From Phoronis australis (taxonomy: Eukaryota > Animalia > Phoronida): a stretch of DNA of 64,000 nt. The notes beneath the pieces were generated by a model. The model was not told the DNA's origin, made no database searches, and worked only from the letters and a program-made list of their open reading frames with translations. Made by a program: the position numbers and the translations under genes. The stretch covers positions 82,850 through 146,849 of the forward strand of contig NMRA01000650.1 of NCBI GenBank assembly GCA_002633005.1. The letters are read 5' to 3'. Below are positions 126 to 63,746 of this stretch, in pieces. Each line of letters begins with the position of its first letter. Within the stretch, counting starts at the first letter, position 1.

Positions 126-783
126 TGGGGTGGCAAAAATGAAGTGACCAAGTCACTATATCAAAGTGACCCAGCAAACGCTGTCACGGCAGACAATTCA
201 GTAGAAAAAACAACTTGAAAAGTAACAATATTTAATGAAGCTTCCAACATTAAACATTTACATACAAACGTTAATAAGTATCATGACTGGCTTGACCATT
301 CTCCATGTGACACCCAAACTAACATTACTGAGATAGAGTTCATCTTATCAAATCACAAAGCTCGTGCATGGTGCATTTATAGCCAGATCCTTTCTTTCAT
401 CATCCGACTTTGAGCACCATCTTCTGGTGGTCCCCAATTTGTCCGTTGGATGTTACAACATTCAATGTCGGCACAATCAATTTGTTGTTTTTTCTAGTTT
501 TAATGGCATTGCTAGATACTACCTGTAGATGTATGTCAAATGCGTGTATGTAACGTGCCGTAACGTGTTTAACCAAGCCGTAGATTGGTTGCCTAGAGAC
601 GAGCACAATCGACTATCATTCAAGTTGACCAACATGTAATGTAACAAAGGAAATACATTTTAAGCTGAACTGTTTAACTCGTTTCAAAAAATGATCTTGA
701 CATATCAGTAGATAATTGTTACCTCCTTCATAAGATTTTATGCTTTGTGTTTGTTAATATGGGTGCATGTGCAAGGTTGTGCT
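126..783 (-). mobile_element. Segment absent from the paralogous intron; possible degenerate hAT transposase C-terminal remnant
   Basis: Flanks join directly in the paralog at ~32490. Minus-strand SSNAIKTRKNNKLIVPTLNVVTSNG loosely resembles the hAT dimerisation region (IKT..RN.L....L). Confidence 0.3.
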
Positions 784-1820: not shown

Positions 1821-1839
1821 GAAGAGTCGAATACAACAG
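1821..1839 (+). CDS. Micro-exon A1 (19 nt, EESNTT), linker after an upstream ZU5/UPA exon
   Basis: ttcgtttcag|GAAGAGTCGAATACAACAG|gtaag. Paralog of A3 (33538) with an in-frame 36-nt deletion. Confidence 0.75.
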
Positions 1840-4800
1840 GTAAGAATTATTGAGTTTTCATAGCGTGAATTAAAATCACCTTCGTGGCGTATACCGCTCT
1901 GTAGCCCTATTTTCTCTTAAAAGCAAGATACCAGAAGACAATTCAAATTCACTATAGTGAAACGCTTGTGTTTCCTAAGGTTAGTATGGTAGCTAGCTTA
2001 ATAGCCTGACTTACGTGGAAAAAAATGGTGTTCGCTGAACGTTTTTGCCAAAATAATGGCCGAAGGAAAACCCACTCGAAATGTTTATTATTGAATGTTC
2101 TCAACAGCCGTGATTCTCCTCAATTAATGGAGTACTTTTAAACTGGAAGAGTTACGTGTAGCAACCACTATCAAGAAATATCACCTTCAAAACATTTCAG
2201 TGGCGTGTATCCTGGTTTTCTAGAGTAAACTAACAGGACATCACAGGATTATAACTAATTATAACCATGTCTAGGAAAGAGTTGAATCATGCTAAAAACG
2301 GCTACCTGTATTGTTAAAGTAGCTTAGGATTGTGTCTGTTTATTCTCAGGAAAACGGCGAGGAACAGGAAAACTTCATCAACACGTGCTACTGGAAGTTA
2401 CTGAACGTGTCATTGGTGGAGATTTTGAAAAACTAAAGGAGTTGTGTGAAGATTGGTTTAAGTAAGAAAAACAACATTACGTGTTTACGAATTATTCATA
2501 TGCTGCACAGTGACTGCAAATAATCGCCAGTCTATCAAACTTCGTTATAAAGTTATCTAGAGCACTACTTTGGTCGGTCAAGAAGTGCCAATTTCAAAGT
2601 GAAACAAAATGCGTAAGAAGCTGTTGATTCAGTCAGACAAAAAACGCGCCACTTCGATTATAAAAGCATGAATTACGACTCCATTTTTGTCAGAAGAATC
2701 AAATAAAATCACTCGCCTTTGCTCTAAACTAAATGCTCGAAGGTAATTGTGGAATTGCTAGCACTCAAAATAGCTTTTAAAGGCCAAAACCACGAGATTT
2801 CGCTTGAGTCGAGTTACCAAAAGACAAGTGTACATGGCACCACTGGCGCCGTCTAATGTTGAAGATGTTCCAGGTTTGTGTGGGTTTAATTTTTCAGAAG
2901 CTTATGTATTCTGCAAAATATCTTCAAAATAGTAGTTTTGTCTCAGTAACTGTTAAATCTTTTTTGAATCTACAAACCCTGTAGAGTTTGACTTGTGACC
3001 TTATACCAAACTGTTAATAATTGAGTCACGAGAACTCTCATTGTAACAAAAATAAACAAAAAAGAACGTTACGTCTGTAACAAAACAGTTCCAATAACAT
3101 GACTATGTTTCTTCTATACAAATGTTCAACTAGATATTTCAAATGGACTCACTGTTTCCAAAATTATACTTTCGTTTTCGCGTCATACCACTCTAGGTTT
3201 TTTAAGAATTATAATAAAAGCTTTTTACAACCCCTCATGCAAAAGTGACAATATTCAAAAACCTCTCAGAACAACATTTTAGAGAATCTTCCATAACGCA
3301 TCATATAATCATATGAATCCCGAAAGTCATTTGTAAGATCTAATGTTGCGATTGTTATTCCCAAAGTTGGCCATTTTCGAGGCTCTAACATAACCTTAAA
3401 CCACAGTGAGCGTTGCAAAACAAAGTTTGTTTTCTCAAAACTTGGGTCTCATATATTAGCCTTCATGTTTCATGATATTAGAAATATGGCATCTTCACAT
3501 CTCATTTCATGTCATTTTCCAACTTTTTAAATAATCTTCATGGGGACATAAAATATATCGCATTCGTTAAATGCAGTTGTCAATGAAAATACATTTCCAT
3601 TACAGTTGGAAGTAGTTTCTTTTCTTTAAATATTAAATATGCGTCAGCTTATCTGTGAATGTGATCAACACGTAATTGTGGGAGATTTAGCACCCAATTT
3701 GGCGAACGTGTAGACTGGTATTTTTCAATTGACCGCAACAGATCGCTGGTGATACAGTTTTATAAGGATGTAGCAGTAAAGTTTTTTAATAGCTTGTCGA
3801 CACTTTTAGTTAAATAATTCGGCTCCACATGTTTGTCGAGTTTCCCATCCATGCCAGATCGTGCAAATGTATCAATCAGTCAGTCAATAATCGTTTTTAG
3901 TGATCTGTAGCTACCCAGCTACAAATGAGGGTTAGATGTCTATTTCCAAACTGAACGTACAGGATAGGACAAGCGTATAATGTACTAACATACTAAACCG
4001 CAGATTAAACAAATTTGCATTTTAATTCATTTTTTTTGAAATTTGAAAAAATATTTTCTCTGAACTTCCAATTTTGCGGCAGTTAATTGCTTTACGATGT
4101 TGCTTAATCTTTTTTTCGTTTTATGCGGCCGCATGCCTAAATGTATATGCGAGTGCGCCACGCTTTCACCCCCTTCTGGCATCCCTTTTAGGGTTTTTCT
4201 TTCGTTCGGTGACCATCCACTGTTTTATATCCAAAAACCCTGGGTGGATTGTACGGTGTGACCTTTTTTTAGATGGATCCCATTACCCTAGGGTGTGCCG
4301 TTTAATGGCGAATTTAACTTTTACGCTTCACCTTGTATCTTTCGAGTTATGAAGGAATTTTCGTAAAAAGTTTGGAAATAGGTATTTCTTTGAGAATAAT
4401 TCGCCGTCTTATTGATTTGTTGAGAGAGAATTTACGTGCATCTTTTCTGCAACTTCTACATGTAGTCTTTGTCTTAAACGTTTTTAAGGGTTCTTGGAGT
4501 CAGCTTTCTCCGTACCAAGCTATTTTAAGGATTGAAATATTGACATGAGATTGGCATATTCATGTATGTTAAGGACGATTGTGAACACATGCGTGGTCCT
4601 TCTGGGACGCAGACGGCTTACGATGATTTTTCGATGGCTCTTCACAACGGTGGCACCGCGTAATGGCAATTTGATTTTCTTGTTTTGTCAGTAATACCTG
4701 CTTAGACGGATTGTCATGAAATTTGGCACAACATTTGTGCAAAAGCGAACATAGTCATGACTGTGTGTACTATTGACCTATTGTGAGTCAATTATTGCCA

Positions 4801-7800: not shown

Positions 7801-10800
7801 AGAGATAATTAATGTTGGAGATTACAGTGAATTAACCCGCTTGCTGCACCAGCTCCATCTGGAGGAACTTGCAGAACTGGTGGAAGAACTGTCAAGTGAA
7901 ATAAAGGGACCAGGTATGAGAGACAATGGTGACCAATTTTATGTGAATACTCAACAACCACTTGGATATAAATATTATTTAGTAAACTGGTGGATTTAAC
8001 AGTGAATTGCGCCGCAATAACACATCTGCAGGGGTCATTAGTGTGTTATTACACCACTTGGTGGCGCTCAAGAAAGGCTCTTGAAACTGATTCCGATGTA
8101 ATATTTTCCATCTTTATGAATCCCGGAAGTACAGCTGGTTATTTGAAAAAATACACAATCAGCTGTTTGACCCCAAAACCATGGTTTGCATGCAATTACT
8201 AAGAAGTTAAAAAAGATGCGCTGAAACTGACAAAATGCTCTGCATTAAAGGAGTCAGGTTAAAAGTGATTGTCGACAAGAAAATGTTTTGAAAATCCAAA
8301 TTATCTGTACGTCTCCTGAATTTTCCGAAAAAATTGCCGCTTAATTTCCCGTTAGCAAGCAGTATGTGTTTAAGAAAACCCACGGCAGAGCAAAACGTGA
8401 GTTAAAGTGTGTAAAGCCAACAGCCGTATACTCAGAACAGGTAGGAATTAAACCGTGACTCAAAAATATTGAGGACCAACAAGATCACTTATAACTCGAA
8501 CTTTACTTCAAATCAAACGACAGTGCCATCCCTGATGGTGAGACATACATGTACTAAGGGAAGGTTTCAGTTGTCAAATGAATGACGATACTTTATGATA
8601 AATTATAATCCATACAGATTCAGATTTTTTTTAATATTCTATGGCTTGTCTGAATCAAATTGCATAGAATCACTGTTTTCAAAAAGGGAGAGCTCTCAAA
8701 CAGGCGTGGTCCGTGCCCAATTACTTTTGACCTTTCCCTGTCAATGTCCAACGATGTTTAACACGATGAATGAATTGTTGGCTGCCAAATAGACTACCTG
8801 TATACAGCATATTGCGTTTTGTGAGAGAAGGTGATGCCAAGTTACCCGTTTATTATTTTTCAGTTATCGTGAATTTCACAATCTCACAAATCCACTAGGA
8901 ATTTGTTTTACAGGAATTATTTACACTAATTTTTTGTGTTATGGCTAACAATTTCCTGGAGTAAGTCCTGCAAAAACTGTTCTTGTGTAAAAATAGTTTA
9001 TGTCATGCAGTTTTCAAGTGATGTTTCTAAGCCCGTCTGTTTGCATCAAAGACAACATCTTACGCAATTTTGGCAGCTATCACAATTGTGTTTGGTCTCG
9101 TGACTACATGTTGAGGGTTTCCTGAGTCGTTTTTGTTCATATATGTTCTTGTATCAGTTTGATTTCTTTGAAAAAATCTGAACGTTTAAGATTTGTATTT
9201 TGAAAATTATCTTTCTAGCACACCACTTAGCTGAAATTATGGTAATTTTTACTAAATGACCTCTTTACAAAATCGCAATTTAACCGATCTTAAAAGGCAA
9301 TAGGTGTTTTTTACTATTTTCAAGTAAATATGGTTTCACATTCATTTATGTGACAATGTCTGTTCCGTTTGTAACGAGTCAAATCCTCACAACCTTTGGA
9401 ACAAAAAAGTGTTCAGGGATCTGTTTTTATTTGTGTGTAGAGTTACATGTAAATGTCTCACTATATTCGAAGCACTGGCATTACACAAGATAGGCATAGC
9501 AGGTAACTAAAGCAATTCCAAGCGTTTAAATAACCAATAGTTCATCGGCTAAAATCAAGCTTCTAGAAGTGTTCATCAATATCACAAAAATGGCTCCCGA
9601 GTGACGCAAAATATCTCAGCCGTCTTGAAAATCGGAGTGTGTCATCATCTTGCTAACAGACAGATATTTACCTCATTGTCCGGAGTTGCAGGGGCAAACA
9701 TAAAACATAAAACATCAAATCGCCATTAAAATGCACCTCTATCGTTGAAATCCGCCAGTGTGATGTTCGTATTAATACATATACCTAAGTTTCCCAAGAA
9801 CGGTTTGAGTTTAGTGTTGCTAAGGTATTAAACAACTAGTTTTGTATGTAACCAAAAGCCTCAAAATAGCTCAACTTTGTACAGCACTGAAAAATGTCCA
9901 ATATGGAAACACAGGTTGGTTAGCAACAAAATGCCACGTGATACCGATTTGTGTTTACTTGGCACTAAATATGTGTCATAAGTGAAGAAATTCCAAAAAA
10001 TGTCACGTGTAGAGAAGGCGTTACTTTTACTTCGGATGTTAACAAGGCCAGGACTTGGCTCCTATAACTGCAGGAAGAGAATGAATATTTTGAAAGAGAA
10101 ATTTGTTGAGTATTATTGGAGTTTTGTGATGTACTTTGGACCTAGAAATTTCAATTTCAATAACTCACTCATTCTTAGTACACGGCTGAAGATGCTACCA
10201 ACCATTTGCACTGGTGACCACGATAAGTCCATGGGCTCGAAATAAAGTGTGAAAAACAATCGTAGTATCCAGCGGAAGAGTAAATACTAGCTAGAAATTG
10301 GGTCACTCTCACTCGCGGCAATGGAGTTGCGACGCCTGTTTTCGAACATCACTTTTTACGAGTCCAAATTGGAAAAGACGAGTGGAAATACATTTATGCC
10401 GACACTCGAAATTTCCTATCGGATATTTATAACCCAGGTTTATATCAATATAGATTTGGTAAAATTGCCAAAGAACCAATATTTTATGCTTGCGTCCTCG
10501 TGTTTTTGATAAACTGAAAAATTCCCCAAGAATCCGCTTTGTAGGAATTATAATTTCAATTAATGAGTTCTGTGAAGAATATAATTTACGGGAATATTGT
10601 TTTTAGGACTTTTTTGTCACAGTGCTTGGATGGGCACTATCGTGTTATTATACCGAGTATTTACTTAAGTGCATTATCGTAATGAGGACACTTGAATATT
10701 CGATTGTATTCTTTACTAGTAAACTTTATGATCTGTCATTCACACGGAATTCTGCATGGCAGCTCTGAAAATTTCAAACATCTCTGTTGATCAGGTTCAA

Positions 10801-13800
10801 TTTGAGTATGACTACATTGTGTATATAACAGGCTTTATACTTGCTACCATGACAGGTTTCAATTTTGTTTAAAAACCCCATTTTTGAATAAAGAAATCCG
10901 GTGTTAAATAGTGATGGAGTTTAATTGTATTTCAAATGAAAAGAACAATGACAAGGCAGTTTGATGCTCCTTGAAGGCAAAAAGTGTCCATGTATATAGT
11001 CGCAATATCTTTATCAGTCCTTTTTGATGTTCTTTCACGCTTCTTCGAAATGAAGACAATTAGAACAAACAATGTTGTGACATACAAAACAAAATTTATG
11101 TTATAAAAATCTAGAATGTCAAATGAATGGGAATATTTCTTAACTTACCTTACATGTAGTTAGGTTTAGTGTATTAAACCACTAACATTTGTCAAATCCG
11201 AGTCTATTTTGTTGGCATTGGTTGTCTCATGGTTATTACTTTTGAGTCTATTGTTAACTCGTTGTTATCTTTGTTTATTAGAATCATGCGTGGAAAAAGA
11301 CATACCTCAGCCCTCAAAGAGGGCAAGGAAGACAAATGTAGGTAAGTTCCGTCATTAAAACCATGGATATAAAAAGGAGGTAAAGCTCAACTCACTATTT
11401 CTATTCGCTGTCTAACTTGAACTTCTAAGGTTGACTATACTGGAATTAGAATTGTGAGAGAAGAGGGAGACAAGTCACCAAACGAAATCCAATCGGACGT
11501 CCAGTGGCAGCCATTGTTGCTTCATGGACCGTAGAGACATCTAGTGGGCGTGTGTGCACTAAACAAATATGGCAAGACATGACGGCTCCAGTCGGTAAAA
11601 AGCAATGGTGCTTTTTGCATGTCTGCAGCTTTGCAGCAATTAATTGAACATTCGTGACTGATGCGTTTTTGCTTCTCCACTGTTTAAGATCAGATGTTCA
11701 CGATTGAAACAAAGAATGTTTTTGTGTGAAACTGTTGCCAGTCAACCAGGGCTGGACTGGGTGATTTGAACTTAATGTCTTCATTGTTCCCTGCATTTGA
11801 TCCCTTCCATGGAATATTATCGTTAACTGTTTGAATGACTTTGGGAACTACTGATTAGTTTATTCTACGCCCATTGATTGCTTTCTTTCATTTCTTTCTG
11901 CAGTCTTCATACATTCAGATCCAAAAAAGATAATAATATTTACAATTTTTTCTTATTTACTAATTTATCATCGTTATGTTGTCATATTTTTATCCCTTTT
12001 AATTCTGTTTTTATTATTGTTTATTTGTTTTTATTTATTTATTCATTGTTTTTATTTGTTTGCTATTGCTTACATGCTGACTGCAGTTGGTCAATAATCT
12101 TGATATGACCATGACATGGACGTAGTGCATACTAAGTATTAAATGTAGGATTTGGTAACCTGCTTGATAAATTTTCATAGGAATTGTTGAATGAAGTGTT
12201 CTTTTAAAAGCAAAGTGAGCTCTACACCGCGGGGTACTTCGGAAGTACGTCTATTACCTTGGAAACCCATTAACATTCATTGACGATGCCGTTTGTTTAG
12301 ATGTTTCGTTTTGACACGCTTCTTAAAACATCAAGTCAAGAAATTAGGCGTTCTTACTTTGTTTACTTTGAAGTTGGCTTGGCGATGTGGGCTGAATATG
12401 CCTGAACTAAGTGCTAATAGTTGATTTTAAAAAGTGTGAATTGTTTACGAGAGCTGGAACGCATCGTCAAAACTACCCTAACTGAACTGTGTATTCAATT
12501 GGCATCTTACCTGTGGTCATACAAGGCAGGTTTATTAGACTTCAGTCAGAAATTCCATCTCTTGCTTCTTTTCAACTCCTCACCCCTCTTGAATCCAGTT
12601 TCATTCACCACAACCTACCCCAATACGTTACCCAATTCAGATACCATCAGGCACGGATGCTGGGTGTCCATTGAATCAGTCTCAAATAGCAACTCCACTC
12701 TGTTCCCTAAAAGTCCTGCATATTTTGAGCTTTCTACGTTGAATTCTCAATATTATTGAAAATAACTAAGGATCTTTTCATGCAACGCCCCCTTAAGGAC
12801 TAAGTCCCTAAATGTTTTGACTGATTTAAGGAATCGGCTTTTAGTTACAATATTATAAAACGTCATAAGTCAACAGAGGACCTCGTAATGATTGAAGATA
12901 AATGCGAGAAAATATAAAAAACTGTGAGTAAAGAATTTAAAAATACGCAAAAGACTTAAATAACACAGTTGAGCACAGACAAATCCTTTGCCAAAGGTGT
13001 TCAGACCCCCAATTTTCCCTCGATTTTAGTGATGTCAAAGTTGACTTGGGCCACCCTACTTAAAAAAATCTTTGATCGGACCCCCCTTTTTAAAAAATCC
13101 TAGATCTTCCCCTGTTGACACGATATTTGGGAATGTTTCAAGTAACTGAGCACAGTCGTAACGTGTGGGTTTTCGAAACAATTATATAAAAACATTTTGA
13201 GAGTTATTTTTTCAATTATATTTTAAAATAAAGTTTGTGCACTGCAAGTTTAAATAATTAATTGTTAATTAATTGATATTAACACCTGGAATATTAGGAA
13301 AGGAATATATTTCCGCCTCCAATTTTTTGGTTGAGGGGCGCCCCCTCCCCGTTTTTGCTTCTTCATCAGATCCATATTATGTTTATTACTAACCTGAACT
13401 CCATGGACAAATCCTACGTACAGGTACTATACGTGCTCACCCTCCAATCACCTATTTTCACCTGTTTACCTCTGTTTACTGAGTCACTACTTTGATTATG
13501 ATGTATTTACGGTAATTTTTATTACCTTTACTGCACATATTTTCTTGATATACTCCGTTTTGCTTATGTGTATTATCCATTGCACTACTCACGTTTTTTA
13601 ATGATTAGTCTTGTTAACGTCTTTGGGTGGCAATGACTTTGTCTATTTTTTATGTTTTGATGTTCTTTCACGCTTCTTCAAAGTGAAGACAATGAGAACA
13701 AACAATGGTGTGACACACAAAACAAAACAAAATTAATGTTATAAAAACATGGAATGACAAATGAAAGTGAATATTTCTTAACTTCACTTAGTTACGATCA

Positions 13801-49800: not shown

Positions 49801-52800
49801 CTCATTGCTTTAATTTGTTTTGTTGGTAATGGTTAGTGTATTGAGATGACTGAGACCATGCTGTGAACTATAAACCCTTCAATTTCTAAAGAACTTTTGT
49901 GTTGATCTATTCAATCACTGAATGGCAGTTACAAGAACTTCTTAGAAATGCCTTTGAAATCGGCGCCCTTCCACAAATCTTTGCGACTCCCGACATTGAG
50001 CGTAGGATCATGAAGTGAAACTTCGTGGCTATGTCATGTTCATGGTATATCCAAATATTTGTTCAACTCAACCAGTTATTTTCTCTGGTGGAGTTAAGAA
50101 CACAGACGATTACTACGGAGCAACCAAAAAGGGATGATGTTCAACAAATGAACTAACGTCATCAGTCCTGTGGCACAACATCCGACACAGCCTCGTGAAC
50201 AAGCTTTTCTGAATAATGCAGTGAGCAAACTCATGTACTTAATCAATTTCAGGTTCCAAGTCAAGCAGTTCGAGCACTGAGTACGAGGTCGGCTGTCTTC
50301 AGACTCACGATATAACTGAAAAGGCGAATGGTGCGTAATTTTATGGTTAGTCGAATGTGCATATTCACACGCTTTCAAAGGTAGTTGAAAAGCACATGTA
50401 ATGATGGCGGGATTCCTTTTCGTCCGAATTGTTATTGATAGCACTAACACAAAATTACTAACACAAGGGGCAATTGTCTGATATAGCGTGCCCGAATTTT
50501 GAAAACCGGTTATCTCCACTGAATAATGGCTATGAACTGGTTCTGAAAATACGGGCACGTTATATCAGACTGATGCCACTCAACATGTGTGAAAGTTGGT
50601 ACTTTGAAGTGATTGCTTGTAAGTACTAATGAGTAAAAAAACGGTGAATTTTAGTGTTCGCCGTTTCAATTCTTCCTAAGTACTGACCGATGTCATTTCT
50701 ATCCCTATAGCAACCATTGATGGAGCAACTGGTGGAGTGATTCGGTGGAAGGAGGTTCAACTTAGAGTGCCGCCAAATGCAATATCCGGGCACATAACAA
50801 TTGAATTTGTAGATCAGCCGTTGTTAGCGCAAGCAGTGCATGACAAAACGAAAGGCAGAGCCAATCTCCATTGTCAGGGAATATGCGTGACTTGCACAGA
50901 TGATGATGCAACATTCTCCTACCCAATCGAAATTCGTATGACTGTTCGAACAATGTTGGAAAACGCCAATGATCACCGATTAGACAGCAAAGGCTTTCGC
51001 ATATTGCGTGAAAAAAATCATGAGGTGACGGACATTACTGAAGATTGCGATGTCAGGCTACACGGGGAGGAAATAGTGTTCTACTGTAAAACATTTTCAG
51101 ATGTGGATCTGGCGTGGGTGAAAAATGTCCCTTCACGAGTTGTTAAATACATCTATAAGGTCATCACACATATTCTCAAATCATCGTACATCTGCAAGAT
51201 ATGTCCTTGTATTAAAGGTAAACAAGAGGAAGGATTGAAAGTTAAACTGTATTGTCATGGCGAGCAAGTGGTGCCTTCTGGTGACCTTGAGCACGAGTGC
51301 ATATATGACAGTGAAAAACAGCGCTTTACAAATGAAGTCACGCTCTGGTTTCAAGTTGCGTGCAGGTGCATTAAAACTGGCAAAGCGACAATACGTTCGT
51401 CTTCAAAGGACTTGGAACTTGAAAGGAGTGTTTGCGAAAGTACGGGGAAACCATTTTCAAGACTCGTGTCTGATGTTAAAGCCCTTGTAGGTGGGGAAGT
51501 TCAACTTCATGTTTATGGAGTAAACTACCCGAAAGCGCTCCTAAACATGTCTGTGAAGGTCCATGTAAGTACCTGCTCAACTTGTTTTGGTGTAAGTTTT
51601 CCCGTGCATATATGTGTGTTGTCTATTGGAGCTTGAACCATGAGTCCGCGTTGTGGGCTTCACGGGTATTGCGAGTGTCTTATTAGATAAAAACAATAAT
51701 GCATTACAGTATTGGAATTATCAGAATGGCAATCGTTGTGCATTTTTTATCCTGCAATACAATATTGGCCAAGTATTGTATATACAATGAATGCAAGGTA
51801 TATTTTTTGTCACCAAGAAATCACTCAAGACAATATTTACACAGAAGAGTTTTGTGGAAAGATGGTCACATGCGTTTTCATAATTTGTTTTCATTATACT
51901 TTGCATCAAGAACAATATCACGGGTGAGAAACAACATGACTGCCGGTCTTCTAAATGGTACTGACTCAGTCAAAACAGGGCCTCCGGCGATCAAATGTGA
52001 CCTCTGCACCAGAAAATGGGACTGACGCACCTAAAAGCATGACCGCCCCACCAGAAAACAGGACCGCCGGGAACTGAACTTGACCTCCGGACAAAATATA
52101 GTTATCCAGGCCTTTGTATGATACTGCGGGTTACGACGTAACCGGTCAGCTAGTTGTGTAAAGACTATCGCCAAAATAAAGCTTGGTAGCACTGCGTTAT
52201 TGATCTCCGTTACATCCCGGAAATTTCCTACAGGCCGGGAATAGTTCTGTTCGTCACATCGTCGTGAAACTTATATCAAAATGTAGAACTAGCGAGCGGA
52301 GCAGGCGCATGCAAAATGTAGCTAGGAGTCAATCGACACTCACCTTGCAGCTTGCAGCCGCTTGAGTGAAAAACAATCTTACGAACGTCATTTCTTTGCC
52401 ATTGTAACTTTACAAAAAAGTCTGTCGCGCTCGCGACATGAGCACGCGCCACTTCCTAAAATTTTGCGACATCTTTTGGAAGATGCTGACTCAACTTCGC
52501 AGCAGCACGATTTGTTCTAAAATTCGGTTTGCTGGTTTTAAAATATTAAAATTTTTATGACGAAATGAAACCAGTTATGTCAATCTGTGCATGCAACCTG
52601 GTAGAAGAGCAAAAGAGCTGACTGAAGAATCGGTGAAAAAAGGTACGGGTCAATGTAAGCCGACCTGAAAGAACGCCTCTCAACTTTAGCATCGGAATAA
52701 CATTTTTCCCGGCAAGAGCCGTTAAATAATGTAGTTTACTCAAGGAAGGGTGTCGTTCATAACACTAATTCGGTGTTTTACCCATATCGGCGCCAAGCTG

Positions 52801-55800
52801 TATATTTAGTATACTGCTTTGCCGCGCAAAGGCTAGTTATGATGCTTCACCCGATAACTAGAACGCCCGTTTTTTTTTCTTGACCAAAACGTCAAATTGG
52901 AGAAAACGATTTTCATTTTGTTCTAAAAGTTACGCAGAGGATAACGTTATAATTACAGTATTTAGCTCAAAGGCTTGCAACGTGAATGTCGGTCTGTGGT
53001 GAAAACTCAAAAGCGCCGCGTGTTATAAAGCCAAGTGTCCTGTAGTGCACAAAAGGTTCGTTGGATTAATCGGCACAAGACCTGCATACGTATATACAGG
53101 TAGCTTCATTGTATGATCTGTGTAGACCTACCGGCAATACATGTACATCTTAGCTTGTTTTTCATTGCGGTTTCAATCCCCGGCGGTCATGTCCAGTCCC
53201 CGGCGGTCCTGTTTTCTGGTGGGGCGGTCCCATTTGATCCCCGGAGGTCCTGTTTTGGGTGAGTCGGTCCGATTTAAGAGGACCGGCGGTCATGTTGTTT
53301 CTCACCCGTGAATATTACTACAAACAACACCTTCACTATAACTCTTGATTAGTGAAATGTTTGTAAATGTCAGTCCATTTGTTCCACATAATGTATATGC
53401 ATTCAATCGTATGCATTTTAAAAGCTGTTCAAAGAAAATTATTTGTTGATTTGCTTTGGACAAGGCTTGATATCCAAGATTAAAATATCCAACATGCCTC
53501 AAGACTTTTACTGTGCTGGTGCACTTGTTCTACGGGCGTTCTGCACGCCACCTGTGAACAACTCCGGTCGAGTCTTCATTTTATTTTGCAGCAATAGATT
53601 CGCAGCACTTCCTGACAACAAAAATATTGTATTTCTAGTTTTGATGGTTTTGCTATTACCTTTGTGAATGTGCGTGTACTTTGTGTTTCGACGTTTTTTA
53701 ATCAACCTTCTCATATTCAAAACTGTCCAGTCAACTACTGGAAATTGAACAGATCGTGAACTTAATAGCATAGTTTCTTGGATGTACGCAGAAAAACATC
53801 CTAGCGCCCAGGGCCAGTTGCGTGAAACATCAGTCATTCAATACATACATATTAGATTAAACGTTTCCAACTTGGAAAAAACGCCCAACATTTGTCCAAG
53901 GTGGCAGAAGAGGAGATCAAACGATGTAATCCTTTTTCCCGTTTTATTAAACCAGGTCCAGGGCACCTTGGGCTCGTTNATGCACTTTAAAAGCTGTTCA
54001 AAGAAAATTATTTGTTGATCTGCTTTGGACAAGGCTTGATATCCAAGACTAAAATATCCAACATGCCTCAAGACTTTCCTGTGCTGGTGCACTTGTTCTA
54101 CGGGCGTTCTGCACGCCACCTGTGAACAACTCCGGTCGAGTCTTCATTTTATTTTGCAGCAATAGATTCGCAGCACTTGCTGACAACAAAAATATCGTAT
54201 TTCTAGTTTTGATGGTTTTGCTATTACCTATGTGAATGTGCGTGTACTTTGTGTTTCGACGTTTTTTAATCAACCTTCTCATATTCAAAACTGTCCAGTC
54301 AACTACTGGAAATTGAACAGATCGTGAACTTAATAGCATAGTTTCTTGGATGTACGCAGAAAAAACATCCTAGCGCCTAGGGTCAGTTGCGTGAAACATC
54401 AGTCATTCAAGTACATACGCATTAGATTAAACGTTTCCAACTTGGAAAAAACGCCCAGCAATTGTCCAAGGTGGCAGAAGAGGAGATCAAACGATGTAAT
54501 CCTTTTTCCCGTTTTATTAAACCAGGTCCAGGGCACCTTGGGCTCGTTACTGAAATCACCCATGTACAAAGGTCTCTTAACTTGGACTTTTTACCGTGGT
54601 TCAAGTTTTGCACTGGCCATTGCGATCTTATTTCATTGTGCCTTAATTTCACGGCTGTTTAAAATTGACTGAAATTAAATCTGACGTAAAATGCTGACTG
54701 ACTCAGAATTTTTTAACAATTCGATCAGTCATGGGGTGTTGACTATCGTATTGTTGAATCTATGCTGATGTTACCCTAGCAATCGTTCCTTTTTGCAAAA
54801 TAAAAAAAATAAAACATCACTGAAATGTATTGCATGGCAGCACGGAGGCTCTAAATTATGTTTCAGTCGTCCAGTTCTTTGAAAATTAAAAAAACAATTT
54901 AAATACAACTGTATATTTAAAGTGATTGAATTCCCAGCAAACCAATCTGGTCCTACTCGTTATTTACAATGCCGCTAAATACAATATTGAACGAAAGCAG
55001 TACCATAAATTACTAACGAGGAAAGTTAAGAAAGTGTCTGTGAATAGGACAAGCATCAATTTTTTATAGTAATTTTGATACCTTTACCACCTCTTGTGTT
55101 GTTGAGGTTAAATTAACCTGGAAGGGATGCTACTGTACTATTTTTGTGCATTGCATTTTGTTTCGTTTTAGGAAGACTCGGCGGTCAGAAAGGAACTTGC
55201 TACACACACAACACCGAATACAACTGGTAAGAATGACTCCATTTGCATAGCATGAATGTGACTCACCGTAGTGACGTACATGTATACCTGGAAAGTGTTT
55301 TGTAGCCCAGTTTCTCTCAAAAATCAGGATATCTGAAGACCTATTAAAGTCACTTTAGTGAAAGTCAAGTGTTTCAGAATTATACTCGGGAGATTACCAG
55401 CCGGACCTACAGTAGAAACATGGTGATCACTGAATTAACAAATACAAAATTGAATACAATACGTTGGGATTCTTCGCCGGCAGCGCAAACAATTGTTGTT
55501 CCTACGGAACTCAATCCGGTGTATCTTAGGCTACCAACGCACTGCAAAACATGAGCACGTAAGGAATGGAATCCGTGAGTTCTGTACCATTATATACGTA
55601 CAGTATTTCAATGTCACCTACCATTCTCTTTGAATGTAGCCCTTCACTACTTGCACGGATTCGCCATTTCGCCCGAACACGAGGTGATGTGGGTAAACTT
55701 CAACGTAGTAATGGTTTGACATGTTTAGGAACCGTCGCTTCCACGTTTGCGGTGATAAAAGAAGCTTCGTGTAGTAAGCAACAGTCACTTTTGCAGCTTC

Positions 55801-58800: not shown

Positions 58801-61800
58801 TACGCCTCGCTGTTTAGACACATCCATGTAATTCTCTTCAATTTAGTGGATTACAGCCATGCTTCACATCTGTCAAAAACTTCAACTACAGAGCGACGTG
58901 TGGCAATAACTGTTATGAAAATCGCCGCCATATATATTGCCGGTGTTGCATCTGGTGTCTTGAGAAAAGAATTACAAAAGTGACATCACATCCTGGTATT
59001 ATAAGTAAATCAGGGGATGTTTAGGATGTCGTTGGATTATGTGTAAACTAATCAAAACGTCTATCAATACCATTAACATTCCTTATACGTGTGCCAATAT
59101 ATTTTCAGAATCACCGAGAAGCCGAGCAGAACTTCATCAACTACTACTACTGGAGGTTGCTGACCAACTCATTGATCGTGATTTTCAAAGACTAAAGACA
59201 TTCTGTGAACATTTGATTGTGTAAGAAAAAACAACCTTAATATTATTTGCGAAAGCATATAATCTAGGGTGTATCAAAGCATTTGGTCCGGTCAAAAACC
59301 ACGACTTTCAATTTTCTGATAGTAGAAATTATGCCAAATTGTGTTGAGCATATACCAATTTGTTAATAATTGGGGCACATGACGTTGTCAATTTTTTAAA
59401 GAATAGCAAAAAGAAAGGTGCATATGTAGCAAAACAACAGTGTTACATGATTAAATTTCGATGTGAACGATCAATGGCGGTTACAGTTTTCTAAATCATG
59501 AAAAGAATATTACGTTGATATATTCGAGGCTGCAATACGGTAGCATTTTTATTTGTTGTTTTGATAGAGTGTGGACAGCATGTTAGTTTTTGAAAAGCTC
59601 ACTTGATAAGGCTTTTGAATTTTGAAAATTGAACAAGGGATGTCACTTATACAGTTTGTGACTTTAACAGCCTAGCATGTTTGTTTAATGTTTCAATAGT
59701 ATGTTCCGCATTACTTCTGCTCGGTGTGTCATATAATTGGTCGAGTTACCAAACTACCAGTCAGAGTACTCTAAACTCGTGAATCTCTTACATTAGTCTA
59801 CATATTTCGTGCTATGAGAAATATGTCATTTCTCCTCACATTTTCCAACGTTTTAAATAGCTCTGAATGGGTTACCACACGTGGTTAAGTTACACAATGT
59901 CTTAACAATTCACCCAAGCAGATCCCTGCTGATGCAATTTCAAAAGAAATCAGCAAGTGAAATATCCGGATTCTCGAGTATATCGTCGATGAGAGTGGTG
60001 AAATATAATAGCCAAACCACAACTTAAAAAATTGCCTTTTGTTTCTTTTTTGAAGTTTGGTTTATGAACTCCCAATTTTGCGGTAGTTCATTGTTTTACA
60101 ATATTGCTTATTTTTTCGATCTTATGCACTCACATTTTCATAAGTGACTGAATTATGCTGTCATACCCTGTCCACTATGCGTGTGTCCAGCGTCCGCTGC
60201 GGCATTTATCTCCGAATTCTCCTGATGGATGTTTATAAAATTTTGAGGTTACGATTCTTTCATAGATTAGAAGGCTTTGCCGAATGTTTGGGTGGATCTG
60301 ATTAGACGGCGGTGTGCCCCTTCAGGGTAATTTTAGTTTTAAGGATTCCACTGTACGTTTGGAGTTCCGGATAAGTTTTTGACGAATAGGTATTTGTTAG
60401 AAAAAACTATGGCCACTGCTCTTTTTGTTCGGAGACTTTCGACACATAATATTTTTTACATTTTTTATACATTTACGAAAACATAAAAAACAAGAACATA
60501 ACGTAAACACACACACACGCACACACACACAAACACACACACAAACACACACACAAAACACACACACGCATACCCCACGCTTAATGCTCTTGACTACTAA
60601 GAAAAACAGTTTCAAAGTTACACCATCATTTTGTACAAATTCTGAACTCAAATCCTTACGAGCACTATACATTTCACTCACATAATATTGTTTGATTAAG
60701 TTAAAAAAATCTACTTAGAAGTAAGGTTTTCAATCTGAACATTTGGCTACAAATAAACTGCTTACCCAATAATAAATACGTTTTTAAATTTTCCCTTTTC
60801 ATCAAAAAAGCCATAATTTATATTGTTGCATGAAAAAGTGCCGACACACTGGGGATTTGCTTTGTTTAAAATTTCATTATTGTGTCCAGAATGAATTTAC
60901 AGTTTCACATTCCCAAAATGAGCGTTTCAAAGTCTCTTTTTATTGTCCACAAAAGGAACAAGTGTCGTCATTCGTAACTTGAATTATTTTTAAAAACGAG
61001 TTGCTAGTCAAAATTCTCGTCAAGAGTCTGAATAGAAGCCACCTAATTCTTGGGTCTCTTGTTATGTTACATAGAAGGGAATTGATAAACCTCTTCCCAT
61101 GATTTTTTTCGTATTTACTTTAAGTTCTTTTGCCGACTTTGACCCGGCTTTTGAAACTTCGGAACTATAATTTAATTGTGTACAAATATGTTGACACCCT
61201 CTCCCACAACTTTTCCGTTTCATTAAAATCTTTGGTACGACAGGATGATACGTATGAAAACTAACATCTGTATCAATAGAACATTTCTGCTGGTGCTTAA
61301 ATATCACTGACATTAGACTGTTATGATTCATTAAGTTCATTTGATAGTTAAAACATCCACAGTAAATCAATAGTTCAAAATATTACCGTTAGGGGAAAAC
61401 AAGTCCTTTATCATAAAGAATATGCCTCCATAGTACCAACTGCTGCACAAAATACTTTTTGCTCCTGCCTCCATTCATCTATCTGATTTTTGATTTCCAA
61501 ACAATTTCCAAAGGAGATAACACATTCAAATATCTTTCCACAATCAAAATTAGGCAAATTTATCTCAAGAAAGTAAACTCCATACTTGGCAAAAATTTTA
61601 ATCTCTGGAAAACTCAAATGAAACAAACTTAGACTGACCGCTTACAATTTTTTAACAAGTTAATCTTTAAAGCCCTACAGAAGGAAAATATGTTAATGCT
61701 TCTAATACCTCCTTCATTACGATTACAAACAGTTCGGTAGCGCTTAATTTTGTCACTTCCACCTTGCCAGAGGAATTCAAAGAAAATTGAGTTTAGTTTT

Positions 61801-63746
61801 TCTTAAATATGTTTCGAAGACTGTGGCAAGGATACAGGGTATCTGAAGATTGACAATTTTTAAACCGCAAGCGCTTTCATTGCTGTGATCCTCCAAAAAG
61901 GTGTCAAATTTCTTTTGGAACAGTTTTTCAAAATTAATGCAATATCTTTCATTTTCGCCAAGTAATTTTGGTTTGCCAGATTGTAGTTGTAGTTGTGATT
62001 TTCTGTTCTTTATGCCTGGAAATCTATTACGTTCTTTGATGGGTGTTCCTGAAATTCTGTAAAAAGTTGCAATCCCGAGACCTGCCTCGCTTGGATTTCA
62101 CCTGTCGTTTTTTTGTTTTGCTGTGCCCTACATGTTTGTTGTCTAGTTCTAGCCCTAATTTCTTAGAGGATTAATCAGAAAGGCAGGTGTGCCCCTGTTG
62201 AAGAGGGCATTCCTGAATTGTTTTGGCCTCCTTGAAGGCTAAGCTTACTAGTGTCGCTCTATTCCCTGGTGGTGTATCAAATAATGACACTTTGGTATGC
62301 GTGGACTGGAATCCACACAGCGGGTGTGCAAATCGACGTCCCACGATGCTGTTGTTTATCTAGTGCTGACGGAGATACCTTTAACACGACACAAATCCTG
62401 ATCTCGTAATCCAATATCTCAAGGGTTGGGATATAAGCGTTCTAGTACTCAAAATAATATTTTAAAATATGCACTTTCGTTCCCCTTTTCTGTGAATTCC
62501 GGCCAGGCAAATGTCCATTATACTGTGCTAAAGTTCAGTTGTGCTAAAATTCAGTACCATGTGTGAAAATGGTGTTATAGTCTCAAGTTCGCTTCTCATG
62601 GGCACTAGACTCGAGCTAAAACTAGGAATGAAAACTCGAGATTTCATGTAAAAACTCAATCTTCAAACCTCTCAATTAAGGTGATTAACTGCAAACTATT
62701 TTTATAATGTCTGAAACACGACGTACCATCCCGTTTTTTTTCGCCAAAAATTGGGTTTTGTGATGAGCAACCTTCACTCAGATTTATTTGTGCAGGTGTG
62801 ATTTTATATTTAAGTGGTCGTGAATGTTTTTTTTTGTTTCCAGACCAGTAATACTACAGAACATAACAGACACTGGGCAACTTCTCAAAGAGCTTGACAA
62901 ACAAGCGGTCATTGCAGTTGGGGATTATAGGAAGTTAATCAATATGCTGGACCTGCTCAATCTGAACGCAATTAAGAGACGAGTGGAAGAACTGGCGCGT
63001 GATATAAGTGCACTTGGTATGAGAGATTATGTTGACCTACTTCCCATGAACACTCAACTGCCACCTGTATAGATGTAACTGTCACGTGATATAAGTGCAC
63101 TTAAGTTGGTATCAGAGATGATGTTGATATTCTGTACATCTATTGAACACTCAGCTCCCACTTGTACAGATGTACTCTGTAGGTTGCCATTTATCATCGA
63201 AGCTATGAATGTTTTTTAATTTGAGCTTCGTAATTGCCACCTAATTACTCTCAGGATAACAGTACGTAAAAGTATAACCAGGGAGAGAAACTAAAATGCG
63301 ATGATTTTAAAGAAAACACCCTACTGATACAGTTAAGAACAGGGGGGAATATAAACCCATAGCAATTCCAGTTATTACCTAAATACGAAACAATGTATGC
63401 TGTTTGTTTATTGTAAACACGGATTATTACCATACTCATTTACATAAAAATAGTCTCACATAATGAGACTTTCGGTTCTCAAATGGTTTTCATAACGAGC
63501 TAGGGTGTTTGTGAATTAGAACTTCATTTTAGTATTTATAATTTAAGTTGCTTTTCATTGTAAATTCCTCATTTTATCGTGCATGAACTTTGTGCAGCAG
63601 AAAACGCTTTAAGTGTGCATGAGTGGCAGTGTCTAGTACATTGTCAAGCTGAGGTGTACCGGTTAAATGCCAAGTTTGCCTTCGCAACAGTTGTGATATA
63701 TTAATGCCATTTACTAAGTGTGTTGGTCATTTTTTCAGGTGTATAA
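1821..63746 (+). CDS. Predicted multi-exon gene (5' part outside window) encoding a repeated ZU5/UPA-like + DED scaffold protein, about 1,380 aa within the window
   Basis: 21 exons with polypyrimidine-AG acceptors and GT donors. Phases chain consistently (A 0-1, B 1-2, C 2-1, D/E/F 1-1, G 1-0) with no in-frame stop before 63744. Exon types recur in the same order in duplicated blocks. The gaps at 14767 and 17806 could hide a gene boundary. Confidence 0.75.
2350..2461 (+). CDS. Exon B1: N-terminal part of DED1 (GKRRGTGKLHQHVLLEVTERVIGGDFEKLKELCEDWFK)
   Basis: tattctcag|...|gtaag, 112 nt, phase 1-2. The LLEV..L...D.EKLKELC pattern matches DED helices 1-2 (FADD LLHSVSSSLSSSELTELKFLC). Confidence 0.85.
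6200..6680 (+). pseudogene. Harbinger (HARBI1/DDE_Tnp_4-type) transposase pseudogene fragment
   Basis: FDELLVRVGSDITKKDSKYRKAL...VKEVCQAI...GGKHVAIRKPPRSGSFFHN*KGFYSVVLMGLVDAEYQFLWIDVGGDGYTSDA, with frameshifts and stops. Confidence 0.85.
6680..6847 (-). pseudogene. Remnant of the Harbinger second gene (Myb/SANT-MADF-like DNA-binding protein)
   Basis: Minus strand reads EEDVMSDLPCGHPELYNKKLNAPKDNM*KNSPWPEQAARLDKPVAFLLIWYR, matching the MADF pattern HP.LY.K....KD...K...W...A..L. Convergent with the transposase. Confidence 0.6.
7741..7913 (+). CDS. Exon C1: C-terminal part of DED1 (PAVLQNVRNTRELLELLQRQEIINVGDYSELTRLLHQLHLEELAELVEEL)
   Basis: tgcttttcag|...|gtatg, 173 nt, phase 2-1. Joins B1 in frame. 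Hydrophobic pattern fits DED helices 3-6. Confidence 0.85.
10763..10855 (+). CDS. Diverged linker exon D' (ALKISNISVDQVQFEYDYIVYITGFILATMT)
   Basis: ggcag|...|gtttc, 93 nt, phase 1-1, open frame. Homologous to D at 24002 and 49083 (ISSICVDADEFEYGY). The acceptor is weaker. Confidence 0.45.
11282..11341 (+). CDS. Linker exon E1 (ESCVEKDIPQPSKRARKTNV) with NLS-like KRARK
   Basis: ctttgtttattag|...|gtaagt, 60 nt, phase 1-1, open. Confidence 0.65.
   Translation, partial: NHAWKKTYLSPQRGQGRQM
13914..13973 (+). CDS. Linker exon E2 (ESRVERDIPQPSKRARKTNV), duplicate of E1
   Basis: Same splice sites and length as E1, within a ~430-bp duplicated segment (about 11020-11455 vs 13655-14090). Confidence 0.55.
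   Translation, partial: NHGWKGIYLSPQRGQGRQM
14768..17805. repeat. N-bounded near-identical duplicate of 18310-20760 plus 22146-22740 (probable second haplotype)
   Basis: Single Ns at 14767 and 17806. Collinear and highly similar to the downstream copy apart from a ~1.4-kb indel. Confidence 0.75.
20955..21094. repeat. Minisatellite, 17-bp unit ATGTTAAACTATGTTAA, about 8 copies
   Basis: Read directly from the sequence. Confidence 0.95.
24002..24109 (+). CDS. Linker exon D2 (EPDVSGDIETQISSICVDADEFEYGYGSGQNQGTMA)
   Basis: tgtatttcag|...|gtatg, 108 nt, phase 1-1. Same length as the paralog at 49083. Confidence 0.8.
24411..24473 (+). CDS. Linker exon F2 (GIKIEAGSSVQFPSESVTEKE)
   Basis: tttccatcag|...|gtaaag, 63 nt, phase 1-1. 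Paralog at 49621. Confidence 0.7.
25559..26412 (+). CDS. Exon G1: ZU5 domain followed by a UPA-like beta-rich region
   Basis: ccctatag|CAACCATTGAC...GTCCAT|gtaagt, 854 nt, phase 1-0. The N-terminus ATIDGSTGGVIQWKEVQLRVPPNALFGNIKIEI fits the ZU5 GG.(I/L)...V.L.(V/I)P..A motif, and the ZU5 ends at SKTFS. The UPA call rests on position and beta-rich composition only. Confidence 0.85.
27285..28995 (+). mobile_element. Non-autonomous Helentron/DINE-1-like (HINE) element with internal ~445-bp tandem repeats
   Basis: Sub-terminal inverted repeats ATGCGCCCAC (27290) and GTGGGCGCAT (28961), a GTCC-rich microsatellite near the 5' end, a 3' hairpin CAACGC-tct-GCGTTG (28973-28987) and T-rich flanks. Confidence 0.7.
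29004..29137. mobile_element. 134-bp MITE with 17-bp TIRs and 5-bp TSD TAAGG
   Basis: taagg|CATGGATGGCGCAGCAC...GTGCTGCGCCGCCCATG|taagg. Related fragment near 14563. Confidence 0.7.
29944..29998 (+). CDS. Micro-exon A2 (EESSGGTEPATGLTPNTT)
   Basis: tggttttag|...|gtaag, 55 nt, phase 0-1. Confidence 0.8.
31347..32191 (+). CDS. Exon G2: second, more diverged ZU5/UPA-like module
   Basis: ctctatag|...GTTCAT|gtaagt, 845 nt, phase 1-0, open. Begins ATIDGTAGGVMRYKGVQIRVPPNAISGDINIEF. Confidence 0.85.
33538..33592 (+). CDS. Micro-exon A3 (EESASGTPSAIIMTPNTT)
   Basis: gtttcag|...|gtaag, 55 nt, phase 0-1. Confidence 0.8.
33627..35295. mobile_element. Kolobok-like DNA transposon, non-autonomous or degenerate
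   Basis: TTAA|AGGCTAATGCCACCC...GGGTGGCATGCTCCT|TTAA (12/15 TIR match). Empty site with a single TTAA in the paralogous intron at ~1870. Confidence 0.8.
35611..35770. repeat. Minisatellite, 31-bp unit CATGGTCATGTGGTGATGTGACTATGTAATA, about 5 copies, abutting the N gap at 35610
   Basis: Read directly from the sequence. The array is probably truncated by the gap. Confidence 0.9.
36675..36786 (+). CDS. Exon B2: N-terminal part of DED2 (GKRRLTRKLHEQLLLEVVERVNGGYFERLKGLCEEWIK)
   Basis: attctcag|...|gtaag, 112 nt, phase 1-2. Paralog of B1. Confidence 0.85.
38260..39381 (+). CDS. ORF2 C-terminal fragment: RNase H domain plus CCHC zinc knuckle (5'-truncated, no RT domain)
   Basis: YTDGSK...GAG...VFQAEITAI...IFSDSQAAI...WVRAHVGIDGNENADRLAK (RNase HI DEDD core) and CPECGTDVESPKHLVESC. 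Confidence 0.9.
   Translation, partial: YLEGEAASAALRLKYNGQWVKTNIPDSVAHRSHRNVCNKLMAKTGQLWNMPSDVQVTTLNHTNNFFTEIGDGWPTAEHKNEVVCYTDGSKLENGQTGAGVYFPSLPVADAENWVSLGNLATVFQAEITAINRAAQLAQQYNTELGNRPIIIFSDSQAAIKALKKLRVNSRCVNACINELNKLAIERTVNIRWVRAHVGIDGNENADRLAKIGASVLHFVPEPAIPVSYGCCRMSIRNWVHTQSAAQWASLNSCRETKENFPNVIEPKGSKSLLSLDRLGIRHVIQILTGHCNLARHRHITGHMRSPVCPECGTDVESPKHLVESCPAFYRLRSNLLDGIVTCLQHIVHGNKWKRLSVFLKDTGRLENFLHEEP
38260..39496 (+). mobile_element. 5'-truncated non-LTR retrotransposon (RNase H-bearing, I/Nimb/Loa-like group)
   Basis: Imperfect ~14-bp TSD taaagatttttaaat / taaagattttcaat. Empty site in the paralog at ~3777-3790. Frame open from the insertion edge. Confidence 0.9.
42506..43680. mobile_element. 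Unclassified ~1.2-kb insertion nested in Harbinger copy 2
   Basis: Absent from Harbinger copy 1 (~6040-6095). Non-coding, with AAAATGGCCGCC-type motifs typical of non-autonomous invertebrate repeats. Boundaries approximate. Confidence 0.5.
43750..44446. repeat. ~350-bp direct duplication either side of N at 44098 (probable assembly overlap)
   Basis: 43750-44097 is almost identical to 44099-44446. Confidence 0.85.
44828..45000 (+). CDS. Exon C2: C-terminal part of DED2
   Basis: ttttcag|...|gtatg, 173 nt, phase 2-1. PATLQNMTNTRELLEQLQRQAIINVGEYSKLTDMLHQLHLEELKDRVEKL. Confidence 0.85.
49083..49190 (+). CDS. Linker exon D3 (EPHVRGDIERQISDMCVDADELEYDYGKGQKLDTTA)
   Basis: tgtattacag|...|gtctg, 108 nt, phase 1-1. 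Confidence 0.8.
49621..49665 (+). CDS. Linker exon F3 (GLKIDAGSSLQMEKE)
   Basis: ttcccattag|...|gtgaag, 45 nt (18 nt shorter than F2), phase 1-1. Confidence 0.65.
50711..51564 (+). CDS. Exon G3: third ZU5/UPA-like module (G1 type)
   Basis: atccctatag|...GTCCAT|gtaagt, 854 nt, phase 1-0, open and collinear with G1. Confidence 0.85.
51919..53310. mobile_element. Non-autonomous DNA transposon with CAC...GTG termini, long subrepeated TIRs and 5-bp TSD
   Basis: AATAT|CACGGGTGAGAAACAACATGAC...GTCATGTTGTTTCTCACCCGTG|AATAT. Empty site in the paralogous intron at ~26805-26830. Confidence 0.85.
53411..54548. repeat. ~570-bp direct duplication either side of N at 53979 (probable assembly or haplotype overlap)
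   Basis: 53411-53978 is nearly identical to 53980-54548. Confidence 0.85.
55172..55226 (+). CDS. Micro-exon A4 (EDSAVRKELATHTTPNTT)
   Basis: cgttttag|...|gtaag, 55 nt, phase 0-1. Confidence 0.8.
56539..56653. repeat. 10-bp tandem repeat (ATTTAAGGAT)n, about 11 copies
   Basis: Read directly from the sequence. Confidence 0.95.
59109..59220 (+). CDS. Exon B3: N-terminal part of DED3 (ESPRSRAELHQLLLLEVADQLIDRDFQRLKTFCEHLIV)
   Basis: attttcag|...|gtaag, 112 nt, phase 1-2. Confidence 0.85.
60507..60571. repeat. Interrupted (CA)n microsatellite
   Basis: Read directly from the sequence. Confidence 0.95.
60660..62350 (-). mobile_element. Old L1/Tx1-like LINE remnant
   Basis: Minus strand ~61060-60880 reads RDPRIRWLLFRLLTRILTSNSFLKIIQVTNDDTCSFCGQ*KETLKRSFWECETVNSFW (zf-RVT-like C-terminal zinc finger). 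The 62090-62330 part is homologous to 41010-41300. Outer boundaries approximate. Confidence 0.6.
62844..63016 (+). CDS. Exon C3: C-terminal part of DED3
   Basis: tttgtttccag|...|gtatg, 173 nt, phase 2-1. PVILQNITDTGQLLKELDKQAVIAVGDYRKLINMLDLLNLNAIKRRVEEL. Confidence 0.85.
63739..63746 (+). CDS. Probable terminal exon coding part (G-V-stop), followed by 3' UTR
   Basis: Strong acceptor cattttttcag at 63738. Phase-1 reading gives (G)GT GTA TAA. No paralog is available to confirm it. Confidence 0.45.

Follow-up and report, generated by a model that had tools for sequence, protein, structure and literature searches.

Serially repeated ZU5 and DED-like exons in Phoronis australis as a candidate multi-unit death-fold gene

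The window analyzed here, a 64-kb stretch of Phoronis australis DNA, is animal-type in composition, with a GC content of 36-46% and long introns. On its plus strand, 22 exons (Table 1) can be joined into one reading frame of 1,404 codons that carries no internal stop and ends at position 63746. AG is present at all 22 acceptors and GT at all 21 donors, and the phases are compatible. An initial annotation made from the letters alone had described 21 phase-compatible exons in one frame; the open frame and the compatible phases stand, but the exon count is 22. The exons follow the order A1, B1, C1, D1, E1a, E1b, D2, E2, G1, A2, G2, A3, B2, C2, D3, E3, F3, G3, A4, B3, C3, T.

Table 1. Exons and flanking intron of the array (window coordinates).
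Feature	Position	Strand	Remarks
Intron	1..1820	+	homologous to G2-A3 intron
A1	1821..1839	+	short phase 0-to-1 linker; internal; no start codon
B1	2350..2461	+	front third of DED-like domain 1
C1	7741..7913	+	back two-thirds of DED-like domain 1; Pfam DED 33-81 of 82, under cut-off
D1	10763..10855	+	linker; weak acceptor; symmetric phase 1, may be skipped
E1a	11282..11341	+	linker
E1b	13914..13973	+	local duplicate of E1a
D2	24002..24109	+	linker
E2	24411..24473	+	linker
G1	25559..26412	+	ZU5 and UPA-sized second half; TFS at 127-129; no Pfam ZU5 match of its own
A2	29944..29998	+	precedes deletion junction at ~30921-30978
G2	31347..32191	+	ZU5 over Pfam cut-off and UPA-sized second half; TCS at 127-129
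A3	33538..33592	+	
B2	36675..36786	+	front of DED-like domain 2
C2	44828..45000	+	back of DED-like domain 2; Pfam DED 32-82 of 82, under cut-off; sense RNA (close paralogs/alleles)
D3	49083..49190	+	linker
E3	49621..49665	+	linker
F3	50253..50330	+	Ser-rich linker
G3	50711..51564	+	ZU5 (under Pfam cut-off) and UPA-sized second half; TFS at 127-129
A4	55172..55226	+	
B3	59109..59220	+	front of DED-like domain 3
C3	62844..63016	+	back of DED-like domain 3; no Pfam DED match; 40% identical to C1
T (candidate terminal exon)	63739..63746	+	two codons and stop

The exons fall into eight classes: G (845-854 nt, three copies), A (four), B (three), C (three), D (three), E (four), F (one intact and two degenerate copies) and T, the candidate last exon. 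G exons are entered in phase 1 and left in phase 0, A exons restore phase 1, the B + C pair runs 1-2-1, and D, E and F are symmetric phase-1 cassettes. This pattern allows the frame to survive both the skipping of any linker and the duplication of whole units. The linkers consist of 65-68% polar or charged residues. The donors of the C exons are strong in all three copies (top 0.2-1.6% of GTs), and the D1 acceptor is weak (top 42% of AGs). About 30 nt before each G exon lies an alternative AAG acceptor, which was passed over for a better TAG acceptor; both are in phase 1. The F copies near 25099 and 30980 were kept out of the frame because their splice sites are lost: the copy at 25099-25177 has lost its acceptor, and that at 30980-31059 has lost its donor and contains an in-frame stop. 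With such a stop, the second of these might serve the G1 unit, which has no DED, as a terminal or poison exon.

When the window is compared with itself, a head-to-tail segmental repeat of 65-90% identity becomes apparent. Positions 1-11,460 repeat 32,192-49,700 colinearly (75% covered, 82% identity), and exon A1 clusters with A3 with a support of 100/100. Duplication has copied the unit linker-G-A-B-C, which corresponds to ZU5-(UPA)-DED. This self-comparison of the DNA bears out the earlier proposal that the cassette is serially amplified. The G1-A2 unit lacks a DED; a deletion with its junction at about 30921-30978 took out its B, C, D and E exons.

Five single Ns (14767, 17806, 35610, 44098 and 53979), all intronic, divide the window into six assembly pieces. 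At three of these five joins the flanks are duplicated at 94-99%, and the five joins could be chimeras of near-identical paralogs. The segment between two Ns at 14768-17805 is 90-94% identical to 18310-22746 and is probably a second haplotype set in tandem, which would point to a highly polymorphic genome. The stretch 17807-24002 starts within a homolog of the intron after C2, so that the gap before D2 may conceal a further pair of DED exons. The types of architecture hold even if the number or order of units is wrong, because every sort of module adjacency, ZU5 next to ZU5 and DED half followed by linker and ZU5 among them, sits within an N-free piece. Specifically, A-B-C-D-E lies within 1-14766, D-E-G-A-G-A within 17807-35609, C-D-E-F-G within 44099-53978 and A-B-C-T within 53980-64000.

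The introns carry mobile and repeated elements. In a retroelement fragment at 38257-39497, the RNase H frame is intact (38248-39378; Pfam E 7.7e-16), and a T-run and a target duplication of about 13 bp are present; the fragment was inserted after the units were duplicated, since it is absent from the paralogous B1-C1 intron. A high-copy 1.7-kb insertion at 33627-35296, flanked by TTAAAG and bearing short imperfect inverted ends, is absent from the unit-1 copy and is possibly a non-autonomous DNA transposon. The region 27200-29150 is very high-copy and internally repeated, and in all three RNA runs it shows a depth of 120-170, mostly on one strand. Broken frames at 6128-6496 and 43549-44394, common to both units, presumably resemble a PIF/Harbinger transposase, for which Pfam gave no support. 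No Rfam family was found in the window.

The identification of exon G as a ZU5 domain is supported by a match of G2 to Pfam ZU5 (PF00791) at 25.0 bits (cut-off 21). G3 reaches 15.7 bits, under this cut-off, and G1 gives no match; the ZU5 call extends to both by homology, because the three copies are 54-67% identical, and they align without ambiguity. The module of 281-284 residues compares with 286 residues for FIIND (PMC11202080; here and below, papers are cited for their accessible sections). In a language-model search, the first neighbor of G2 is a 292-residue UPA/ZU5 cluster at 0.96, with a recognition value of 2051 that lies under the 2300 mark. Its further neighbors are ZU5, UNC5B and FIIND clusters, and the UPA/ZU5, UNC5B and FIIND clusters score 0.91-0.96 with low recognition. 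The initial annotation had also placed a UPA domain in the second half of G, but none of the three halves matches PF17217, PF17809 or PF23679 in Pfam searches with E values of up to 10. The size, the position and the language-model features of this half suggest a UPA domain, which we therefore call probable. No Pfam match to FIIND or CARD was obtained among 12 exon peptides, and none of the G halves matched FIIND. AlphaFold2 models of G are of low confidence (pLDDT 39 and 31) with a strand-rich first half, and fold searches with the first of these models (no Foldseek match at E 0.001; best Z 4.2) are uninformative on its fold. A sequence search of the PDB returned no match for the G alignment and two unrelated ones for the first half of G2.

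The B + C pair had been called a DED. On single exons, Pfam DED (PF01335) finds partial likeness in C1 (18.0 bits) and C2 (19.3 bits) over profile positions 32-82 of 82, but neither score exceeds the cut-off of 35.9, and neither C3 nor any of the three B exons is matched. Each B exon encodes 36 residues, the right length for the missing front of a DED. A PDB search with C2 alone ranked a cFLIP DED first (E 0.4), and searches with the B and C alignments returned only unrelated helical repeats. In the language-model search with C2, two unnamed bacterial clusters (0.91) rank above DED clusters (0.87 and 0.84), and the ten best family matches belong to the same clan. When B and C were folded as two chains, the co-fold score was 0.43 versus 0.02 for the best of three controls (pLDDT 74-76), a value rated weak because scores of 0.60 or less comprise, by the tool's own counts, five of 78 solved pairs and all four passing mismatches. 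The co-fold runs agree in at least 90% of contacts, and the score possibly derives from likeness to solved DEDs. These sequence and model data indicate that B + C is likely a DED-like death fold.

The E/D-RxDL charge triad of DEDs is found in none of the three copies, which read LEEL in C1, LEEL in C2 (aligned to cFLIP) and LNAI in C3. At the position that we take to be equivalent to FADD Phe25 (helix 2/5 patch; F25, L28, K33), the B exons encode Glu, Gly or Thr. The RxDL motif has been described as conserved among DEDs (PMC4558505).

The copies diverge at 15-33% of their bases, and stops or net frame shifts are absent from every G and B + C copy. When copies were aligned pairwise, 132 frame-shifting indels were counted in 4,380 bases of flanking intron versus six in 3,768 bases of exon. 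The six are end-gap or compensating artifacts in the short A and B exons, as all copy lengths differ by multiples of three. In a neutral simulation with substitutions only (0.10-0.20 per site), the three G and three B + C frames all stay open with a joint probability of 3e-6 to 4e-10. The exon frame is under selection, more than chance would allow. At the amino acid level, dN/dS is 0.66-0.76 for whole G exons, with a synonymous excess between G1 and G3 (p 0.03), and 0.51-0.64 for the ZU5 halves (Fisher p 0.007, 0.05 and 0.09), indicating modest purifying selection. Constraint on the amino acids of the DED is not measurable (dN/dS 0.91-1.08, p 0.7-1.0). Such weak constraint fits a fast-evolving immune gene, but also an early stage of relaxation. 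Identity among copies is 76% in exons versus 73% in flanking introns.

The two ends of the gene differ from those initially proposed. A start at 1821 with the first DED is contradicted by A1, an internal exon that begins in phase 0 and encodes no Met; in the joined frame, Met first occurs at residue 131. The gene enters the window from upstream, because positions 1-11,460 copy 32,192-49,700, A1 pairs with A3 and has no start, and each of the other three A copies directly follows a G exon. We predict a fourth, G2-like ZU5 exon whose end would lie about 175 nt before position 1, and the first DED most likely belongs to a ZU5 unit whose G exon lies there. The architecture is better written as ...[ZU5]-DED1 / ZU5 / ZU5-DED2 / ZU5-DED3. 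Within the window, no leucine-rich repeats, ankyrin repeats or Ig-TSP-transmembrane region were found as a front end, and the gene continues past the 5' edge.

At the other end, a stop directly after the third DED had been assigned to exon T, which turns out to be one of several comparable acceptors past C3 and has no homolog in the window. Its acceptor is ordinary (top 4%), roughly matched in score by at least three further sites downstream of C3. The window ends 984 nt past C3; the introns after C1 and C2 are longer (2.8 and 4.1 kb). Reading through the C donors gives a similar short in-frame peptide in each copy, followed by a stop at 7997, 45111 or 63070. These tails (7914-7997, 45001-45111 and 63017-63070), the second with a 9-nt in-frame deletion, are possible alternative 3' ends.

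Transcription was examined in three raw RNA runs carrying the same species label but taken from other individuals, with about 18-19% of each run used. RNA on G1, G2, C2 and C3 is almost wholly sense. If all coverage of a bin is taken to fall on the exon, the best-run depths are about 26 for G2, 38 for C2, 17 for C3, 5 for G1, 1 for B2 and less than 1 for G3, so that C2 exceeds B2, and G2 exceeds G3, roughly 30-fold. In one run, depth across C2 drops toward both edges (22, 40 and 11 reads), as expected for spliced reads. Compared with the window, reads on C2, C3, G1 and G2 show differences that are fixed (in C2, for example, 40/40 at 44925). The four differences listed for C2 all correspond to the C1 letter, though C1 and C2 differ at 26 of 173 positions. 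Reads 99% identical to the window number 28 of 990, 33 of 836 and 7 of 809 in the three runs. Furthermore, a DNA run contains five contigs with the other letter at 44925 and several more close copies of C2 and G2. As further close copies exist, the RNA cannot be assigned to this locus and derives from paralogs or alleles.

Among the matches listed, the only splice is an E-to-F junction, represented by two reads of one run from a family member with a longer E2-type exon. No splice junction of this locus has at least three reads among these matches, where repeats dominated the joints of the first mapping and none of the 15 joints listed for a second one is bounded by GT..AG. Mapping reads to the junctions therefore gives one splice at the level of the family and, among these matches, none at the locus. 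A single polypeptide is plausible, and we infer that all units are spliced into one mRNA.

A further feature of the G exons concerns self-cleavage. Residues 127-129, which by position would mark the end of ZU5, are TFS in G1 and G3 and TCS in G2, so that two of the three ZU5 exons have Phe-Ser at the likely cleavage position. PIDD1 is cut at HF/S, and NLRP1 and CARD8 are cut at SF/S, Ser replacing His (PMC9162469). His-Phe-Ser is absent from all three G copies. Cleavage of CARD8 requires Phe296, Ser297, His252 and His270, the last at a spacing of 27 (PMC3210808). A His precedes the Ser by 30 residues in G2 and by 26 in G3, and G1 has neither, so that no copy clearly has the full cleavage set; the three copies share no His close to the spacing of CARD8 His270. 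The sequence makes self-cleavage at the Phe-Ser of G1 and G3 possible, and the reading favored below does not presuppose it.

These modules resemble known death-fold proteins in part. CARD8 and NLRP1 consist of FIIND (ZU5-UPA) followed by CARD, with an SF/S cut (PMC3210808, PMC11202080, PMC11874512). The P. australis units share with them a ZU5 module of similar length, a short linker, a death fold, polar linkers upstream of ZU5 and, in two of three copies, a hydroxyl residue-Phe-Ser sequence at the likely ZU5 end. In contrast, the death fold here is DED-like, no Pfam FIIND match was obtained, there are three or more copies of the module (with four predicted), the supporting His is not conserved, and cleavage is a candidate property. 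The order of ZU5, a UPA-sized region and a death fold also recalls PIDD1, UNC5 and ankyrins (PMC9162469), although the fold is DED-like rather than a DD, HFS is absent, and the window holds no LRR, ankyrin or transmembrane part. The repetition known in that group is ZU5-ZU5-UPA (PMC9162469), whereas whole ZU5-UPA modules are repeated here.

The initial annotation had named no characterized counterpart for its architecture of ZU5/UPA coupled to DED. Our literature search likewise yielded no paper on serial ZU5-UPA-DED units (most subscription papers lie outside it), but the pairing itself has a precedent in a dog FIIND protein, 'Dog_ded', which its authors label DED-containing and report as 47% identical to human CARD8 (PMC3210808). 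The likeness, by the authors' label, is that of a ZU5-UPA-type module and a DED in one protein. The dog protein has a true FIIND, whereas the modules described here have no detectable FIIND similarity; repeats are not mentioned for it in the accessible text (PMC3210808). The lack of FIIND similarity points to a pairing that arose independently of the dog one.

New combinations of death folds are common in invertebrates, as illustrated by the amphioxus DED-NACHT proteins (PMC2575513), the expansion of ZU5 in a sponge (PMC3482391) and the fusion of TRADD-N to UPA-ZU5 (PMC8195603). The array shares with such shuffling its fast-evolving, multi-copy modules that are bounded by phase 1 and appear in new orders; it differs in that neither ZU5 with DED nor serial ZU5-UPA-DED is described in the accessible text of these three papers. 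ZU5 with DED was likewise not found in the accessible parts of PMC12909245, PMC11508797 and PMC11463336. Word-index protein searches, in mostly prokaryotic libraries, gave no relatives among 906 candidates (longer proteins) for G2, 1,657 for the G alignment and 5,847 for the C alignment. The only match of the full HMMER scan, a low-complexity repeat protein, was discarded as spurious, and none of 298 pattern matches in metagenome contigs was a usable homolog. With libraries that are mostly microbial, this absence of relatives is weak evidence of novelty.

We tentatively favor, at somewhat less than even confidence, a reading in which the window holds the downstream part of one long gene, whose protein, akin to CARD8, PIDD1 or UNC5, would serve as an adaptor of several units in cell death or innate immunity and work as a switch. 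Beyond the exon structure, we infer every step of such a mechanism. Each ZU5-(probable UPA) module would keep its adjoining DED shut until release, much as UNC5b holds its DD shut via ZU5-UPA (PMC9162469). Loss of the upstream ZU5, or a cut in the polar linkers, which we liken to the disordered trigger region of CARD8 (PMC11202080), would free UPA-DED pieces. The freed UPA would then cluster the DED into a filament, as UPA clusters CARD in NLRP1 and CARD8 (PMC11874512), and the clustered UPA-DED might recruit a DED-bearing caspase or adaptor, probably caspase-8-type partners. A bolder version is a self-cutting polyprotein of DED-wired, CARD8-like tripwires. Here each ZU5 would cut itself at Phe-Ser, and the resulting UPA-DED-linker-ZU5 pieces would stay together as a non-covalent chain. 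The linkers, fast-evolving and shuffled as exons, would be baits for pathogen proteases or degradation signals, and letting go of any single unit would free a UPA-DED that nucleates a filament of the caspase-8 type, amounting to a 'DED inflammasome' whose one gene carries several triggers. We consider this version very unlikely.

The array could instead comprise tandem separate shorter genes or 3'-truncated isoforms, each linker-ZU5-UPA-DED, like a cluster of CARD8-type paralogs. The read-through stops after the C exons, with polyadenylation hexamers within 1.5 kb in all three cases, would suit such genes, as would the very uneven exon depths and the additional close copies of C2 and G2 in the DNA run; the natural unit also ends in a death fold, as in UNC5, PIDD1 and CARD8. 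However, the intervals between C and G yielded no first exon with a Met, tblastx revealed there no conserved coding segment fit for a separate first exon, and the C exons have retained strong donors. In the G1-A2 unit, which lacks a DED, the sole fair terminal exon would be the degenerate F with a weak acceptor. Hexamers, besides, are common in introns of 36% GC. We regard separate genes as unlikely. It is also conceivable, though in our view decidedly improbable, that one long protein is made that acts as a decoy or brake, its divergent DEDs soaking up or capping DED filaments or binding non-caspases and its ZU5 modules not cutting themselves. The replacement of RxDL by LEEL, LEEL and LNAI, the residues at the presumed FADD Phe25 position, the absence of His-Phe-Ser and of a common His at the CARD8 His270 spacing, the Cys in place of Phe in G2 and the absence of a catalytic domain from the window are in keeping with such a role. 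Yet RxDL is not the main binding surface in every DED (PMC4558505), CARD8 tolerates changes two residues before the cut (PMC3210808), and partners in so distant an animal may have co-evolved.

A young segmental duplication in early decay, or mis-scaffolding of paralogs or haplotypes, would mean that the long frame is never made. This account agrees with an exon identity scarcely over that of the flanking introns, with the damaged splice sites of two F copies and D1, with the resemblance of 14768-17805 to a second haplotype and the three joins with near-identical flanks, and with the rarity of RNA reads 99% identical to the window. It is at odds with the three G copies and three B + C pairs, which are free of stops and frame shifts despite their divergence, and with the exon adjacencies that stand within N-free pieces; the RNA came from other individuals, so that differences are expected. 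We judge it rather improbable, on a par with a decoy.

The well-studied ZU5-UPA switches are coupled once, to a DD or a CARD. If the units prove to be separate genes, the locus would be one more lineage-specific immune gene cluster. If, as we tentatively prefer, they belong to one protein, a ZU5-UPA switch can couple to a DED-type fold and can be strung in series, which would give an invertebrate path by which ZU5-type sensing leads to caspase-8-type death with neither receptors nor ASC. The idea that ZU5-UPA is a portable cassette for autoinhibition and oligomerization, usable with any death fold, would then become testable.
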